Source: Micavibrio aeruginosavorus (GTDB lineage Bacteria; Pseudomonadota; Alphaproteobacteria; Micavibrionales; Micavibrionaceae). From it: DNA of 64,000 nucleotides. A model generated the notes under the pieces. It had not been told where the DNA came from and did not search any database. It was given only the letters and a program-made list of their open reading frames with translations. Below, one piece after another: positions 6,299 through 51,287 of this stretch (positions are counted from its first letter, which is position 1; every line of letters starts with the position of its first letter). A program made the translations under genes and the position numbers. The stretch covers positions 4,645-68,644 of the forward strand of contig QFOT01000001.1 of NCBI GenBank assembly GCA_003241285.1, in the 5' to 3' direction.

Positions 6299-6919
6299 AT
6301 GTACGAAGACAATAACTGGGCTGCCGTCACCGGCGAAGAACTTGACGGATTTTTGAGCCAGATTGGCCAGATCGACGGTAAATACTCCACTTCCGGCCAA
6401 TCCACCGAAGTTTCCTACCGTATGCTTCCTTTCTATGACAATGTCGCGCTGATCCGCCTGAAAGACCGCTCTTGGGGCAAGCCGAAGCTGGCTATCTATT
6501 ACCTGACCATGGAAGGCAATCTGTTCCGCCTGAACGGCACCTCCCCGCCGATCCATGAAGTAAACGCCAAGGCACCTGTCAAAATCACGGATGATAACGT
6601 GCTCGAATATTTACGCTTTTTCTGCTTTTTCGTTCGCGGCGAGGAAGGCCCGTTCCTGATTGCCGAAACAATGGATGACCCGTATATCCCGGCTAATCTC
6701 GACCCGAAAACTAAAGCGGTTATCGAAGGCACGGTTCGCGCCGCATCCTACGAAGGCAAGAACGAGCAAGGCTATTTCATGTGCGATGCTGTCGTTTATT
6801 ATTCCAACGCGCTTTTTATCGCGAATTTCGCTGTTCAGCCGTCAGGCATGATCGAAATGCTCGACGATGAGCCGATTGCCGCTGATCTCGGCGTTAAGGT
6901 CGACGCACCTGTAACCTGA
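6299..6919 (+). CDS. conserved hypothetical protein, unknown family, paralog of 26723..27334
   Basis: 206 aa with no signal peptide. Shares a collinear core with the 203-aa ORF at 26723..27334: NAKAPVKITDDNVLEYLRFFCFFVRGEEGPFLIAETMDD versus NENAPVALNEKTVIDYARFFFSFVRGRHGRFIIIESVDD. Confidence 0.7.
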   Translation: MYEDNNWAAVTGEELDGFLSQIGQIDGKYSTSGQSTEVSYRMLPFYDNVALIRLKDRSWGKPKLAIYYLTMEGNLFRLNGTSPPIHEVNAKAPVKITDDNVLEYLRFFCFFVRGEEGPFLIAETMDDPYIPANLDPKTKAVIEGTVRAASYEGKNEQGYFMCDAVVYYSNALFIANFAVQPSGMIEMLDDEPIAADLGVKVDAPVT

Positions 6920-6981: not shown

Positions 6982-8196
6982 ATGGCGAAATCTAAAAACA
7001 ACTATGACATCATCATTGTCGGCGGCGGCCTTTCAGGCCTTACGCTTGCCTGCCTTTTAGGCACGCATAATTTTTCGGTTCTCTGCCTCGACCGCGACGT
7101 GCCCGCGAATAACAATGCCAATGCCCGCGCTACGGTTTTATCGCACGGCACGAGCCTTGTTTTGAAAGAAGCCGGGCTTTGGGACAAGATCGAGCCCCTC
7201 GCCTGCCCTATTTACAAAATCGATATTCTCGATGGAAATTCACCTGTGCTGATGGATTTTCTGTCAAGCGATGTCGGCGGCAAAGCCTTCGGCCATAACA
7301 TTGAAAATTCTCTTCTGCTAAACCTGCTCGAGCAAAAAATTAAAAAACTCAAAACAGTAAATCATCTAACGTCGACAGAAATTGCCGACATCCGGACAGA
7401 TGACGCCGCCGCTTATATCACGACAAAAGACAAGAAAAAATATTCCGCGCCGCTTCTGATTGGCGCGGATGGCCGCAATTCCTTTATCCGGAAATTTTTA
7501 AATATCACGACACATGGCTGGAACTATGAGCAGACGGCGATCGTCGCCATTTTGGAACATAAAAATCCGCACAACAATGTAGCCATCGAACATTTCAGAA
7601 GCGAAGGTCCGTTGGCAATTCTTCCATTGAGCAATGACGCGACAGGCAATCACCGCTCGACTCTCGTCTGGACGGTTGAGACGCGCAACGCAAAATCTTT
7701 TCTCGATATGGACGAAGATGTTTTTAATACTGCAATCGCCGCCCGCATTCCGCATTCCTATGGCAGAATTACACTTGTCTCGAAGCGCATGTCGTATCCG
7801 CTATCCCTGCAACACGCGCATCACTATATCGGAAACCGCATTGCCTTGATCGCTGACGCTGCACATGGTATGCACCCGATTGCAGGGCAGGGCCTCAACA
7901 TGGGTATGCGTGATATAAAATCATTATCCGATATTCTGATCGATGCGCGAAATACCAAAAAAGACTTCGGCTCTGACAGCATTTTAACAAAATACCAGCG
8001 CGCGCGTCATTTCGACAATATGACGATGATGGCGGCGACCGATGCGCTGAACAAACTTTTTTCGAACGACCTTCCCTTCGTCGGACATCTGCGCCGCATC
8101 GGCGTTGCCGCGATCAACAAAATTCCACCCGCCAAGCGTTTCTTTATGCATCAGGCTATGGGTCTAAAAAGCCGCCGTCATTGCGAGAAGCGTTAG
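6982..8196 (+). CDS. FAD-dependent ubiquinone-biosynthesis hydroxylase, UbiH/UbiF/VisC/COQ6 family
   Basis: Likely start is MAKSKNNYDIIIVGGGLSGL (GxGxxG). Also GADGRNSFIRK and ALIADAAHGMHPIAGQGLNMGMRD motifs. The last codons (RRHCEKR-stop) lie inside repeat element B1. Confidence 0.85.
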   Translation: MAKSKNNYDIIIVGGGLSGLTLACLLGTHNFSVLCLDRDVPANNNANARATVLSHGTSLVLKEAGLWDKIEPLACPIYKIDILDGNSPVLMDFLSSDVGGKAFGHNIENSLLLNLLEQKIKKLKTVNHLTSTEIADIRTDDAAAYITTKDKKKYSAPLLIGADGRNSFIRKFLNITTHGWNYEQTAIVAILEHKNPHNNVAIEHFRSEGPLAILPLSNDATGNHRSTLVWTVETRNAKSFLDMDEDVFNTAIAARIPHSYGRITLVSKRMSYPLSLQHAHHYIGNRIALIADAAHGMHPIAGQGLNMGMRDIKSLSDILIDARNTKKDFGSDSILTKYQRARHFDNMTMMAATDALNKLFSNDLPFVGHLRRIGVAAINKIPPAKRFFMHQAMGLKSRRHCEKR

Positions 8197-47473: not shown

Positions 47474-47697
47474 ATTGCAATGAAAACCAGCCCGTCCTTA
47501 CCCGGCCCGTATCGATCTTGGGGACGGCTGGAGAAAAAGAAACGCAAGGCTAAGCGCAATGACATTTTAGATGGAATAAGGCTGTAAAAATTTTTCGGAG
47601 CGTTTTCAATCCGCTCATGCCCTTCGCGGTGAATGATTAAGGGATGCTGTTATCCCGGACCGCGGCGTAAAGAATTCTCACGCCGCGCCTTGTGCAA

Positions 47698-47809
47698 AAA
47701 TCAAGTTCTCAACCGACAGTATAATAATGAATCAAGATTTCGCGTTAGGGATTGAAGAAGATAATATTGTAACGCATCATTTCAAAAAATTATCAGGGGA
47801 GATTCGATG
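47698..47809 (+). repeat. ~112-nt promoter/leader cassette, copy 1
   Basis: About 90% identical by eye to 48832..48944. Contains TATAAT (47720..47725), a 27-codon uORF (47727..47810) and SD aggggag before the ATG at 47807. Confidence 0.85.
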
Positions 47810-48055
47810 AATATATTTAAGTATGTGTTATTTGTTTTATTTATCTTAATTCCATTAAGTTCTGCCCTCTCTGCCTCAGAAGACACGAAGGAGCCTTTCA
47901 CTCAATGCAATGAGGGGCAACATATTCAGCTCGAACTAGGCAAGCAGCATATAAAATTTTCTATCCCGGAAAAATATTTCTCTCCAAGGGATATTTACAA
48001 GAAAGTTCAAGATCCAGCTGAGCTAATTAGTGTTCAGCTAAAAAAACCGATATGA
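47807..48055 (+). CDS. secreted hypothetical protein, N-terminal part of a probably split gene
   Basis: 82 aa with signal peptide ...SSALSA/SE. Ends in an ATGA overlap with the next ORF, immediately after an A7 tract (48040..48046). Confidence 0.5.
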   Translation: MNIFKYVLFVLFILIPLSSALSASEDTKEPFTQCNEGQHIQLELGKQHIKFSIPEKYFSPRDIYKKVQDPAELISVQLKKPI

Positions 48056-48483
48056 CGCAAAACTGTCATGAAGGGTTTTCAACCAATAAAATATCAAGTC
48101 AGTTTTACAAGGTAACAATTCACCCCTATGGGGGCAATGTAATACCTAATGCGATTAAATTTGAGTTACGCTGGCAGCCTATTGACAAAGGGATTGTGTC
48201 AAATGAATTTCAATTATTTACGAATGAATACAAAGAAGAAAGGCAATGGGAAAGAACAGATTTGCTTATACCTGTAGACAAAAAACAATCTAAAATTCTA
48301 TTTTTAAAATGTTTGTATTCATTACCTTCAGTTACACCCACCAAAATGACAGGTTGCGGCGTTACCTCAGACTTCGAGGGAAGAATGTATTTGAGATATA
48401 GCATAAAGCCTGAAGAAATCGGGAATTATAAAGAAATTGATCAAAAAATTAAATCCAAGCTTTCTGAGTTTATGGTCGAATAA
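48052..48483 (+). CDS. hypothetical protein, C-terminal part of a probably split gene
   Basis: 143 aa. Its C-terminal region aligns with the C-terminus of ORF 50028..51287 (MYLRYSIKPEEIGNYKEIDQKIKSKLSEF versus DYDIRYTFDKRSIENYPAINREIKNFIAKY). Confidence 0.5.
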   Translation: MTQNCHEGFSTNKISSQFYKVTIHPYGGNVIPNAIKFELRWQPIDKGIVSNEFQLFTNEYKEERQWERTDLLIPVDKKQSKILFLKCLYSLPSVTPTKMTGCGVTSDFEGRMYLRYSIKPEEIGNYKEIDQKIKSKLSEFMVE

Positions 48484-48513
48484 TTTGAAAAAATATTCAG
48501 GAGAGATTCGATG
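48484..48513 (+). repeat. partial (3' end) copy of the leader cassette
   Basis: tttgaaaaaatattcaggagagattcgatg matches the last ~30 nt of the cassette, including the SD and ATG. Confidence 0.7.
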
Positions 48514-48663
48514 AAGAGATTATCCAAAAAACAGAAGGTTATTATCGCTGCTTGCTGCTTGCTCTTTGCTGCTTGCTGTTTATTGCTTTCTATTAACTCT
48601 GAAAATAATTCCCATACGATTAGTCAGCCAAGATTGCGAGTTAATGAGTTCCGAACAAAATAA
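48511..48663 (+). CDS. putative 50-aa lipoprotein/secreted peptide
   Basis: MKRLSKKQKVIIAACCLLFAACCLLLSINSENNSHTISQPRLRVNEFRTK, with SD aggagag. Has a lipobox-like IAAC. Below the ORF-track cutoff. Confidence 0.4.
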   Translation: MKRLSKKQKVIIAACCLLFAACCLLLSINSENNSHTISQPRLRVNEFRTK

Positions 48664-48681
48664 ACTGTAAAGGAGCAAACT

Positions 48682-48831
48682 ATGACATCTTATCATGACT
48701 ATGAAGAGCTGTTACTAACCCACAATTTTATTGGCGGTGCAGGCCAATTTCAGATTACAAATCTTTCTAATGATGCGCGTGCAAAAGTCGATGAAGATAT
48801 AAACGGATTTTATCAATCTGGTCTTTCATAA
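48682..48831 (+). CDS. putative 49-aa protein
   Basis: MTSYHDYEELLLTHNFIGGAGQFQITNLSNDARAKVDEDINGFYQSGLS, with a strong SD (aaaggag) 7 nt upstream. Confidence 0.4.
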   Translation: MTSYHDYEELLLTHNFIGGAGQFQITNLSNDARAKVDEDINGFYQSGLS

Positions 48832-48944
48832 AAATCAAATTCTCAGCCGACAGTATAATAATGAATCAAGATTTTGCGTTAGAGATTGACGAAGATAATA
48901 TTGTGACGAATCATTTCAAAAAAATATTCAGGGGAGATTCGATG
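48832..48944 (+). repeat. ~113-nt promoter/leader cassette, copy 2 (full length)
   Basis: Same cassette as 47698..47809 with one extra A in the A-run. The extra base puts the uORF in frame with the downstream ORF, which is why the track shows a 114-aa ORF from 48861. Confidence 0.85.
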
Positions 48945-49205
48945 AAGAAGTTATCAAAAAGAAAAATTATAGTTTTCAATACTGCGCTTTTCACTCTTTT
49001 ATTAATATTCATTCTTATTAATCAGAAAGATATTAGACAAGACCTTTGTACAAAAGAAATAACTTGCTTTGGGTTTCATACGAATCCTCAAAGCGGCTGC
49101 GCTATGACAGAATTAGGAGAATGCATTAGTCCAAAGTACAAAAGACTTAACTCAGGTTGCACAAGAGATGCAAACGGAGAATGTTTCAAGCAAATTGAAT
49201 TTTAA
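48942..49205 (+). CDS. small Cys-rich membrane-anchored/secreted protein (87 aa)
   Basis: MKKLSKRKIIVFNTALFTLLLIFILINQ... followed by 6 Cys (CTKEITC...GC...GEC...GC...GEC). SD aggggag lies upstream. Confidence 0.5.
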   Translation: MKKLSKRKIIVFNTALFTLLLIFILINQKDIRQDLCTKEITCFGFHTNPQSGCAMTELGECISPKYKRLNSGCTRDANGECFKQIEF

Positions 49206-49259: not shown

Positions 49260-49997
49260 TTAATCGCCGTCTTTTTCGGGTTCGAAATCGCCGCTCATGG
49301 TCGTGGAGGTCAGGTCAAAAAAACTTCGATCGATGAAAACTTCGTCGTCACGGTATCTCACGTTCAGGGAGACCTGACCGCCCCATCTTTTTTCGAGGCA
49401 ATTGTTGAAAAACTCCAAAAAGCGGTCGAAGCGTTTTATCATCCGTGTAATCTGCAAAGGTGAGAGGTTGAAGAGATCGCCGATTTCCTTTTTCGCGTCT
49501 TCGAAAGCCAGGATCATCACGTTGCGGTAAAAATCACGCTGGCCCATATCCAGGTTGATGCGCCTGGCTTCGTTCACTTCAATCTGGTCGGCATGTAAGT
49601 CGCAAAACGCATCGATCCCAACAGGCTCGAACTTGCTGTCTTTTATTTCGCGCATACGCTCCCGGCTTTTCGCAATTAATTCCCGGTCGAATTCGGCCTT
49701 ATCCTTGTCCGGCCCTTGAACGGCCAAATGCAAATACAGATTGGCGTCGCGCATAACGTCCTGATTGACCGACATGCAGGTTTTCGGAACGGGCGTCACC
49801 TGCAGATAGAGAATGCTATAAACAAAACGAAGCGCGATTGTGGAATCGTCTTCAGGCACGTAATTGCAATAACGGTCGCGGTTAAAATGTGACATCGCAT
49901 CCCGCAGGGCGAGGGAATAGAAATGAATACGGGCATCGGGGGTGAGGAGGCTTAATTCCTCCGCAAATGCCGGGTGAAAGTAAGCCGTTCTCTTCAT
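49260..49997 (-). CDS. hypothetical protein (245 aa)
   Basis: ORF only. The segment IGDLFNLSPLQITRMIKRF is weakly HTH-like. Divergent from the 50028 gene. Confidence 0.5.
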   Translation of the reverse strand: MKRTAYFHPAFAEELSLLTPDARIHFYSLALRDAMSHFNRDRYCNYVPEDDSTIALRFVYSILYLQVTPVPKTCMSVNQDVMRDANLYLHLAVQGPDKDKAEFDRELIAKSRERMREIKDSKFEPVGIDAFCDLHADQIEVNEARRINLDMGQRDFYRNVMILAFEDAKKEIGDLFNLSPLQITRMIKRFDRFLEFFNNCLEKRWGGQVSLNVRYRDDEVFIDRSFFDLTSTTMSGDFEPEKDGD

Positions 49998-50027
49998 AAG
50001 AAAAAAGATAAATCAGGCGGGCAAATA

Positions 50028-51287
50028 ATGTCAAGGATTAAAATCCTAATACACACATTGAACACTCTTGTGTGCATGGATTTTAAGATCTTCCGTGATA
50101 GATTTATTCATATGCCCACTCATTTCCTCTCGCGCGCGGCTAAATCCCTGTCCTGGTGGACGGGGGTTTTGTATCTTTCGGCCTTCGTTCTCAATACCGG
50201 CCTGCTCTGGTTTTTAATCCGCAAGGCGGGGGCGTGCAGTTTCTACGATGTCGGGATTATCCTTGTCCGCTGCGGCGAGGGGGATCTGGCGAGGTTCCTC
50301 GATGTCTTCCTGCTGTATTTCTCGCCGCTCGTGGCGCCGGTCATCGCCCTGAACTGGAGAATGTTTTTCTTCGAACCTTTCCTCGCCAGTGAATTCCAGT
50401 ACCGCCTGCTGTTTATCTTTTTCTTCGTTTCATTCTTCGTCATTTTCTCTTCGCTCTTTGTGCTGCGAAAAATGGTGAAAGGATTCCTGATCCGCCGCCA
50501 CGACCGCGAGGCGGGAAAACACGCCTGGATTATACTGGCGATTATTCTCATCCCGGCGCTGCTGAGTTTTTCCTACCGGCTTTATCTTTTGCCGCCCAAC
50601 TGGTCCGGCATGACGATGCATGTCGATTTCTGGCATGGGCAATTCGACGTGCCGCGCGGCGAGATGACGGACTGGAACGTCCTGCCGCGCCCAAGGCCCG
50701 AGCGAAAACCGGCTGAATATGCCGGGAAACTGACGCGCTGGTGGAAGGTCGTGCCCTATATCAATTTCAATTATCCGATCACTCCCGCCATCGGCGATAA
50801 CGCGCCGGATGAAACGGTGCAGGTGCAGGTCAATCCGCATCACGAAGCCAGAAGCCGGGAGATGATGCAGGCGGAGCGGGAGAAATTTCTTGCTTATCGG
50901 CTGAGCCTGAAAAGCGAAAAAGACGATCTGCCGATCTATCCTGCAGAGCCTCTTCGCGAGAATGGCTGGGAAATATATAAGGCAAATTATTTTTATGAAG
51001 ATGTGTTTCAGGACATATATGTAGCGCGCAAAAACGGCACTATCGAAAATTTGCTGTATTGCACGCCTTCGCATGCCTGCGCGGTAAAGACCAGATTTTC
51101 CTGGGCATCCTATCCGTGCGAGGCGACGAAAGATTGCGGCTCATGCAAAAAAATATGCATGGATGTGTCGCAAGGAACGGGGGATTACGACATCCGCTAT
51201 ACGTTCGATAAAAGAAGCATCGAGAATTATCCGGCGATCAATCGAGAGATAAAGAATTTCATCGCCAAGTATTACACGGCGTACTAA
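50028..51287 (+). CDS. hypothetical integral membrane protein with an extracytoplasmic C-terminal domain
   Basis: Track ORF is 49974..51287; the start is uncertain (50028, 50076 or 50112). Has 4-5 TM helices followed by a soluble Cys-containing domain homologous to 47807..48483. Confidence 0.6.
   Translation: MSRIKILIHTLNTLVCMDFKIFRDRFIHMPTHFLSRAAKSLSWWTGVLYLSAFVLNTGLLWFLIRKAGACSFYDVGIILVRCGEGDLARFLDVFLLYFSPLVAPVIALNWRMFFFEPFLASEFQYRLLFIFFFVSFFVIFSSLFVLRKMVKGFLIRRHDREAGKHAWIILAIILIPALLSFSYRLYLLPPNWSGMTMHVDFWHGQFDVPRGEMTDWNVLPRPRPERKPAEYAGKLTRWWKVVPYINFNYPITPAIGDNAPDETVQVQVNPHHEARSREMMQAEREKFLAYRLSLKSEKDDLPIYPAEPLRENGWEIYKANYFYEDVFQDIYVARKNGTIENLLYCTPSHACAVKTRFSWASYPCEATKDCGSCKKICMDVSQGTGDYDIRYTFDKRSIENYPAINREIKNFIAKYYTAY

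Follow-up and report, generated by a model that had tools for sequence, protein, structure and literature searches.

AprI is encoded beside aprA, an example of a metzincin protease with a small co-transcribed partner that counteracts it (PMC4070987). Likewise, bamI lies upstream of mep72 in Pseudomonas aeruginosa, and BamI neutralises the protease (PMC4334185). A different form of control is documented for the Neisseria opa genes, which undergo slipped-strand phase variation through repeats located in leader-peptide codons (PMC3960869). In the sequenced Micavibrio aeruginosavorus the RTX ('hemolysin-related') family is expanded, partly on islands, and this expansion was credited to causes other than recent duplication (PMC3189940). 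Here we examine an AT-rich islet next to mnmG in a stretch of 64,000 nucleotides (nt) of Micavibrio aeruginosavorus DNA (contig QFOT01000001.1, positions 4,645 to 68,644; hereafter the window), in which a promoter-like cassette is repeated in front of short open reading frames (ORFs). We consider it probable that the islet is the decayed remnant of a lineage-specific island for a serralysin-type RTX protease, and that the cassette is the island's own promoter, leader and Shine-Dalgarno (SD) site, multiplied locally.

The genome to which the window belongs (G000; 2.18 Mb in 212 contigs, 92.9% complete) has a GC content of 48.3% compared with 31-37% in the islet, so the islet is indeed AT-rich, as first reported. 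It directly adjoins mnmG-rsmG-parA-parB. Two near-identical full cassettes, a third 3'-partial copy, and an SD and ATG closing each copy had been proposed in a preliminary description made by reading the letters, and all of these were recovered. The two full copies, at 47696-47811 and 48830-48946, share 92.3% identity over 117 nt (blastn, E 1.5e-44). Copy 3 matches at 48477-48529 with 87% identity to copy 2, and is reduced to the distal leader, the SD and the first codons. Every copy ends in AGGGGAG or AGGAGAG, with an ATG 5 nt further on (47807, 48511 and 48942), and the reported TATAAT stands in both full copies. Five ORFs occupy the islet: A (82 amino acids, aa), B (143 aa), C (50 aa), D (49 aa) and E (87 aa, six Cys), the last with its start corrected to 48942. 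The features, in window coordinates, are as follows.

47696..47806, plus strand: cassette copy 1, full, the putative promoter and leader between mnmG and the island (repeat search, blastn); TATAAT 47720-47725; candidate promoter pair TTGAAG 47752-47757, 17 nt, CATCAT 47775-47780; A6 run 47784-47789; SD AGGGGAG 47795-47801.
47727..47810, plus strand: upstream ORF (uORF) of 27 codons, judged spurious, ending in ATGA over the start of ORF A.
47807..48055, plus strand: ORF A, 82 aa, predicted signal peptide and N-terminal half of an exported protein of ~230 aa.
48040..48046, plus strand: A7 tract, the apparent frameshift site of the A/B gene; A8 at the same place in the intact homolog P0003.
48052..48483, plus strand: ORF B, 143 aa, predicted C-terminal half of the same ~230-aa protein.
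48477..48510, plus strand: cassette copy 3, 5'-truncated; SD AGGAGAG 48499-48505.
48511..48663, plus strand: ORF C, 50 aa, basic N-terminus and one transmembrane (TM) segment, MKKLSKKQK family, assessed by the ratio of nonsynonymous to synonymous substitution (dN/dS).
48547..48578, plus strand: degenerate (GCTGCTT) repeat, 4.6 copies with 84% matches, in the TM codons of ORF C (Tandem Repeats Finder).
48682..48831, plus strand: ORF D, 49 aa, with its own SD AAGGAG; about the first 45 codons of a serralysin-type RTX metalloprotease gene, left as a stump.
48806..48835, plus strand: apparent duplication junction, where protease coding sequence (…DINGFYQ) meets the upstream flank of copy 2.
48830..48941, plus strand: cassette copy 2, full; TATAAT 48854-48859; candidate promoter pair TTGACG 48886-48891, 17 nt, AATCAT 48909-48914; A7 run 48918-48924; SD AGGGGAG 48930-48936.
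48942..49205, plus strand: ORF E, 87 aa, predicted small bitopic membrane protein with three Cys pairs in its tail.

ORF D gives the islet its identity. Described before as a 49-aa cytoplasmic peptide, it aligns with the N-terminus of a protease in the same-genus genome G006 (44% identity over 45 residues, blastp E 3.6e-9) and shares 59-62% identity with the protease stumps of two further relatives, G003 and G005; it is thus the N-terminal stump of a protease gene. The G006 gene and its G003 paralogs are serralysin-type RTX metalloproteases by Pfam, with Peptidase_M10_C (E 5e-15), RTX repeats/HemolysinCabind and the sequence HETAHSLGLGH, and the full-length proteases of the relatives carry the complete set of serralysin hallmarks: the HExxHxxGxxH zinc site, Peptidase_M10_C and RTX repeats. 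ORF D covers only ~45 N-terminal residues and has none of these hallmarks. Furthermore, a search for Peptidase_M10_C (PF08548) gave no signal anywhere in the window's own assembly.

The cassette is present in three of the six other genomes of the genus (G003, G005 and G006), in each at a single locus, and the locus is equivalent in all four carriers, between mnmG and a pair of genes encoding 245-aa and 437-aa proteins; several cassette copies were counted for these relatives. In the non-carriers G001, G002 and G004 different genes adjoin mnmG. The simplest form is seen in G006, where mnmG is followed by a divergent single cassette, a 55-aa ORF (MKKLSKKQKIVILSV…) and the protease gene, which runs off the contig. 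In G005 there are three cassettes, again with small ORFs; the protease is represented by a stump of 143 aa, and the locus also encodes a signal-peptide protein of 182 aa and a 74-aa remnant of the C-terminus of an RTX protein. G003 carries four to five cassettes. Its island begins with two small ORFs and a 50-aa protease stump and continues with a 1.25-kb unit consisting of cassette, small ORF and protease residues 1-306 (…DLIDLRQ), present in three tandem copies that have decayed unequally (L028 6686-9186, G003:C2), one of them frameshifted into ORFs of 96 aa and 221 aa. After these units a further cassette drives a 203-aa signal-peptide protein, which is followed by an RTX protease of 1465 aa.

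The arrangement of the copies suggests how the islet arose. Copy 1, together with the preceding ~85 nt, shows 70-74% identity to the intergenic DNA next to mnmG in G003 and G006 (blastn), and because it is orthologous to that intergenic DNA, copy 1 would be the ancestral promoter region. Coding homology in ORF D extends to ~48818, after which the sequence resembles the upstream flank of the cassette. In G003 the equivalent stump breaks at ATAAACGG and continues with CGTATTG…, running into a copy of mnmG-proximal intergenic DNA; the join shows microhomology of a few bases. Judged from these sequences, the join of ORF D to copy 2 is the expected scar of a tandem segmental duplication. The duplicated unit would have started a little 5' of the cassette and ended near codon 45 of the protease gene, giving rise to copy 2 and leaving ORF D as a stump, and copy 3 would be a cassette that lost its 5' part. 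Copies within a genome are alike (91% identity in the window, 80-97% in G003 and G005), whereas the window copies share only 53-68% identity with those of the other three genomes, compared with 77-81% for mnmG DNA. The copies therefore cluster by genome, which points to recent duplication or gene conversion. Unlike the RTX expansion described for Micavibrio aeruginosavorus (PMC3189940), the duplications here appear recent and local, include promoters, and leave truncated genes behind.

The same data bear on whether the cassette could be the end of a mobile element (an insertion sequence (IS), a prophage or an integron-type gene cassette) spread by transposition or site-specific recombination. 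An AT-rich islet with a sequence repeated at several gene starts is what such an element might leave. Yet neither the islet nor its neighbours contain a transposase, integrase or phage family, no tRNA gene lies within 10 kb, the same chromosomal site is occupied in four species, and the junctions are gene-internal with microhomology rather than element ends. Within the 2.18-Mb assembly the cassette, the SD-start motif and the protein start MK[KR]LSK[KR] occur in the islet only; the search for further genomic copies that had been suggested found none outside it. A looser protein-start pattern also fits one unrelated ORF on contig C138. Searches of phage, plasmid and viral collections with the cassette returned nothing similar. 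In a pattern scan of metagenomes the sole match, L036, proved to be a chance match preceding an unrelated 722-aa protein. An IS or prophage end, which the preliminary description had named as a possible refutation, finds no element match and no copies at unrelated sites, and we regard this explanation as extremely improbable. What had been called a modular, duplicating expression cassette for exported proteins is in fact a non-coding module of promoter-like hexamers, strong SD and start codon, of which repeated duplication has occurred both here and in the three sister genomes, but it is neither free-standing nor mobile, as the gene-internal duplication junction indicates.

We next consider the product of copy 1. 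ORF B matches the homolog P0003 in an exhaustive phmmer search (E 3.8e-15, B residues 19-142 to P0003 residues 108-231; a second match has E 4.7e-12). When A and B are joined they align end to end with the 215-237-aa homologs P0003-P0006, and the alignment contains four invariant Cys and the motifs F-IPE-Y and WER-D-L-P-D. The P0003 gene (locus L059) stands 2 nt upstream of one for an RTX protein of at least 900 aa. The frame in the window is not intact but split at the A7 tract 48040-48046. On this alignment evidence A and B are read as one frameshifted gene of an accessory, RTX-adjacent type, and the 82-aa ORF, described before as a short ORF opened by copy 1, is the front half of that ~230-aa gene. 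Alternatives for the split are that the gene is in a phase-off state or is misassembled. The family is weakly similar to the C-terminal domain of the 437-aa membrane protein encoded nearby (blastp E 0.002-0.02 over 39 residues; hhalign E 0.0016 at 16% probability), and an AlphaFold2 model of it reached a predicted local distance difference test score (pLDDT) of 36. Signal-peptide proteins of ~200 aa upstream of proteases in G003, G005, G018 and G047 showed no detectable relation to A/B or to one another. With Pfam, NCBIfam, PADLOC and PHROGs, none of the islet ORFs gave a useful match.

The remaining cassettes precede small proteins. Nine family members in four genomes begin with MKKLSKKQK, continue with some 20 hydrophobic residues and end in a short polar tail; the N-terminus is conserved and the tails are hypervariable. 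At C and E the repeated cassette sequence also spans the first signal-anchor codons (MKKLSKKQK…). The first 27 codons of ORF C have a dN/dS of 0.09-0.15 relative to G003 and G005, which marks them as genuinely coding. Five of the nine members have a C-x5-G-x-C loop, in which seven residues separate the Cys. ORF E, confirmed as an 87-aa protein with six Cys, has two of its three Cys pairs in this form, and AlphaFold2 models residues 6-34 as a helix with confidence, next to two weak hairpins (mean pLDDT 65). Since most members have no plausible signal-peptidase site, the proteins are best read as bitopic, with a cytoplasmic N-terminus and a periplasmic tail. Sec export is likewise suggested by the basic N-terminus and hydrophobic segment and by the modelled helix of E. 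Thus each cassette copy would serve one Sec-exported product: copy 1 the frameshifted A/B protein of ~230 aa, and copies 3 and 2 the proteins C and E, which may insert N-in and expose a short periplasmic tail, often with a disulfide loop. The earlier view that the cassette fronts basic and hydrophobic exported small proteins stands in that the expression module does precede exported-type ORFs. The small-protein family has no match in Pfam, NCBIfam, PADLOC, PHROGs or PDB. A word-indexed search of 5.8 billion proteins with E returned nothing but E itself, and the same search with B returned only B.

The TM codons of ORF C contain the degenerate heptanucleotide repeat listed above. Three GCTGCTT units translate as AACCLLL, and at most two perfect units follow one another in the window tract. 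The 'lipoprotein-like' Cys doublets ascribed earlier to the 50-aa peptide are therefore a translated (GCTGCTT)n microsatellite. A lipoprotein reading of ORF C was rejected, as its Cys sit inside the hydrophobic segment and come from the 7-nt repeat. Period-7 arrays are also found in orthologous or paralogous genes, with 6.0 imperfect units in G003 and 5.1 units in G005. Another G003 gene, copy b (L028 9106-9150, G003:C2), has a perfect array of 6.4 units in its signal-anchor codons and its ORF closes at 30 codons; had it five or eight units, a protein of 55 aa or 62 aa would result, with the family Cys loop and the tail …VNGGCVSQGNGECLEFK, which is near-identical to the tail of the 53-aa member in G005.

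Such a repeat raises the question whether the islet belongs to a phase-variable contingency family, in which a constant cassette and signal-anchor 5' module is kept while the tails diversify by recombination, and slippage at (GCTGCTT)n and at A tracts switches expression, as in Neisseria opa. The period-7 repeat stands at the same place in three species, and the perfect array of G003 copy b stops translation at 30 aa where five or eight units restore the conserved tail. Perfect non-triplet repeats of at least four units are otherwise nearly absent from the window's own genome (two cases in 2.18 Mb). The conserved N-terminus with hypervariable tails, the homogenised copies within genomes, and the A/B gene that is off at A7 where its intact homolog has A8, are all consistent with switching, for which opa gives the precedent (PMC3960869). 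The likeness to opa with its CTCTT repeats lies in a non-triplet repeat within export-signal codons whose unit number sets the frame, and in a multicopy family of conserved 5' parts and variable mature parts (PMC3960869). It differs in that the unit here is a heptamer, that one of four tracts is perfect and belongs to a sister genome, and that the products are tiny bitopic proteins rather than outer-membrane barrels. Moreover, the window tract is degenerate, with 84% matches and two perfect units in a row, the protease copy next to the G003 array is also broken so that its OFF state may be plain decay, and A7/T7 runs are common (733 in the genome). Decay is an equally good reading of G003 copy b, and we hold a contingency family to be unlikely as the explanation of the islet. 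A perfect heptanucleotide repeat other than those of this family occurs once in the genome: (AGTAATC)5 at G000:C48:11963-11997, an intergenic tract that follows a 666-aa gene and precedes first a hairpin, then a 488-aa gene.

To characterise the cassette itself we aligned ten copies from four genomes, the two of the window and eight from relatives. The conserved blocks are, in order, AAAAATCAAGTTnnCAACC; (T)ATAAT; TCGCG; TTGACA … TTTGTnAyGCAyCAT; an A/T run; and GGGGAGATTCGATGAAG. A sigma-70-like scan found the pair TTGACA-17-CA(C/T)CAT in identical alignment columns in eight of the ten copies, and TATAAT with a poor -35 in six of the ten. A start from the first pair would fall in the A run, ~20 nt before the ATG, and a start from TATAAT would fall ~5 nt downstream of the uORF ATG. 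We think the positionally conserved TTGACA-17-CAYCAT is the most likely source of the transcript, which would then have a leader of ~20 nt, with TATAAT as the alternative. RNA structure and covariation of the leader, suggested earlier as a check, were looked for and none is conserved: the consensus fold (alifold) amounts to -0.71 kcal/mol, with five weak pairs and essentially no covariation, and single-sequence leader folds are like those of shuffled sequences (z -0.2 to +0.7). Rfam has no match in the cassette here or in the relatives. Because fold, covariation and Rfam are all negative, the conservation is, as far as the alignment tells, that of DNA sequence, meaning promoter and SD, and not of RNA structure. 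A regulon search for the cassette blocks upstream of other genes of the same genome gave matches at chance level only. Together these results are consistent with a cassette that would be the island's native promoter, a short unstructured leader and a strong SD.

The 27-codon uORF fares poorly in this comparison. The reported frame, the ATGA overlap and the fusion through an A6/A7 difference are all present; in copy 2 the A7 run (A6 in copy 1) places the uORF in frame with E and creates a 114-aa ORF at 48861-49205. As a real leader peptide, however, it is kept in none of the eight copies of the relatives, in all of which its start codon is missing or its frame is closed within a few codons; one of the closing stops is the TGA inside the TTGACA block. 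No SD precedes 47727 or 48861, and the ATG lies 1 nt past TATAAT. That ATG would also lie outside the transcript, because either candidate promoter would start transcription downstream of it. We regard the uORF as spurious.

These observations also weigh on a reading of the islet as type I toxin-antitoxin-like repeats (hok/sok, ldr, ibs), that is, membrane toxins with a leader and an antisense RNA and with a uORF like mok. Small peptides with one TM segment and Cys-bearing periplasmic tails, tandem leader cassettes, a promoter-like TTGAAA-16-TATCTT on the minus strand of both window copies, and a uORF that overlaps the main start would all suit it. The likeness to hok/sok is thus one of a basic N-terminus, one TM segment, a Cys-containing tail and repeated leaders; the differences are the missing family match, the missing structured mRNA and conserved overlapping frame, and the linkage to a protease. 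C and E have no Hok/Gef, Ldr or Ibs match at E<=1, Rfam is silent for the cassette and the leader fold is neither stable nor conserved, the uORF is missing in the relatives and the antisense site is not in the G005 copies, and the genes are consistently protease-linked in two genera. We judge a type I system to be very unlikely here.

The linkage to a protease extends beyond the genus. Of 60 genomes sampled from the family, 28 have serralysin-like RTX genes. The closest protease homolog outside the genus, in G046, is 45% identical and has the same NFIGG N-terminus. At its locus L057 (6442-7738, G046:C19) a row of six small ORFs (46-70 aa), all with a basic N-terminus and a single TM segment, stands directly 5' of a serralysin-like RTX protease of 1048 aa. 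Two of these ORFs carry a duplicated 93-nt leader (6780-6872 and 7466-7558, 83% identical) whose sequence is unrelated to the window cassette, and a second G046 locus shows the same arrangement of small ORFs and protease. More distant serralysin-like genes are without such small ORFs. In two further genera, at L039 437-1036 (G018) and L040 708-1346 (G047), a signal-peptide protein of ~200 aa is encoded directly 5' of a serralysin-like RTX gene, and comparable proteins upstream of the RTX protease are those of 203 aa in G003 and 182 aa in G005. Hence small genes accompany a protease in G003, G005, G006 and G046, while in the window no protease stands beside them.

By position, the small proteins may be partners of the protease, possibly restraining it as AprI or BamI do. 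The serralysin-inhibitor operons (AprA-AprI, PrtA-Inh/SmaPI) and Mep72-BamI resemble the islands of the relatives in that one or more small genes for Sec-targeted proteins directly precede a metzincin gene and share its strand, as in bamI-mep72. The partners here differ from Inh/AprI in being bitopic proteins of 50-90 aa, often in arrays of two to six and with hypervariable tails. They also have no sequence relation to Inh/AprI, and the protease itself is gone from the window. Searches of Pfam and NCBIfam with A, B, C and E for the Inh/AprI family gave no match at E<=1 beyond noise, and a sequence search among solved structures gave no relative of ORF E or of the 245-aa neighbour. The nearest working analogy is AprI/BamI, and it stops short of membership in those inhibitor families. 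The islet genes of the window are probably relics or have another role, because no intact protease remains at the locus and no serralysin domain was found in the assembly.

A further proposal unites several of these threads: in predatory Micavibrio-like bacteria, the MKKLSKKQK proteins would form a family, so far unrecognised, of phase-variable partners to secreted metalloproteases. A constant 5' module (promoter, SD and signal anchor) would be copied and homogenised by local recombination, the heptanucleotide repeat would switch individual copies, and the hypervariable periplasmic Cys-loop tails would tune or restrain the protease. We see only a slim chance that this is correct. If true, the contingency locus would belong to a predatory bacterium instead of a pathogen associated with a host.

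Several points weigh against our interpretation of the islet as a decayed protease island with its own multiplied promoter. Both candidate promoters fall short of consensus, the TTGACA pair through a weak -10 and the TATAAT through a weak -35, and promoter use and co-transcription are themselves deduced from sequence. ORF D has a dN/dS of 0.11-0.29 and so is possibly not a mere relic. The junctions in the window and in G003 lie ~12 nt apart on the protease side and ~35 nt apart on the cassette side; they could stem from one shared event followed by deletion, or from two separate events. The genome may still encode a protease partner elsewhere, since the assembly reaches 92.9% completeness and an RTX gene is cut off at the end of contig C169, although the search for Peptidase_M10_C was negative. 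Finally, searches of Pfam, NCBIfam and PDB gave the small proteins no homology link to any known inhibitor. With these points included, we still favour a decayed island as the probable explanation.

Other observations concern the surroundings. The gene on C169 (G000:C169:3-6329) encodes an RTX protein of at least 1095 aa running off the contig start, whose C-terminal secretion signal shares 58% identity with the one in the G003 island protease; two genes downstream on the other strand, of 400 aa and 238 aa, look YcaO- and TfuA-like by sequence. The 245-aa/437-aa pair (window 49260-51287) is divergent and, within the genus, occurs only in the island carriers G000, G003, G005 and G006. It has no match in 39 other genera of the family, and both proteins are without a family or solved-structure match. 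The 245-aa protein could be a regulator of the island. Just 5' of copy 1 lies a GC-rich inverted repeat, GCGGCGT…ACGCCGC at 47666-47688, which is not kept in the same form in G003 or G006.

For the most part, then, the islet reflects ordinary gene-family turnover and is a new instance of known processes. Taken alone it is a relic and changes little. It does explain four orphan ORFs, as a protease stump, a split gene and two members of a small-protein family, and it improves the annotation, in that the uORF is removed and the Cys doublets are traced to a microsatellite. Two leads emerge for the family. One is a subfamily of serralysin-like RTX proteases that is regularly preceded, in two genera, by arrays of tiny membrane-anchored proteins which no database family describes. 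The other is a small-protein gene with a perfect, frame-setting heptanucleotide repeat. If the small proteins were antidotes or switchable modulators of the protease, they would matter for understanding how an epibiotic predator keeps its lytic enzymes under control.

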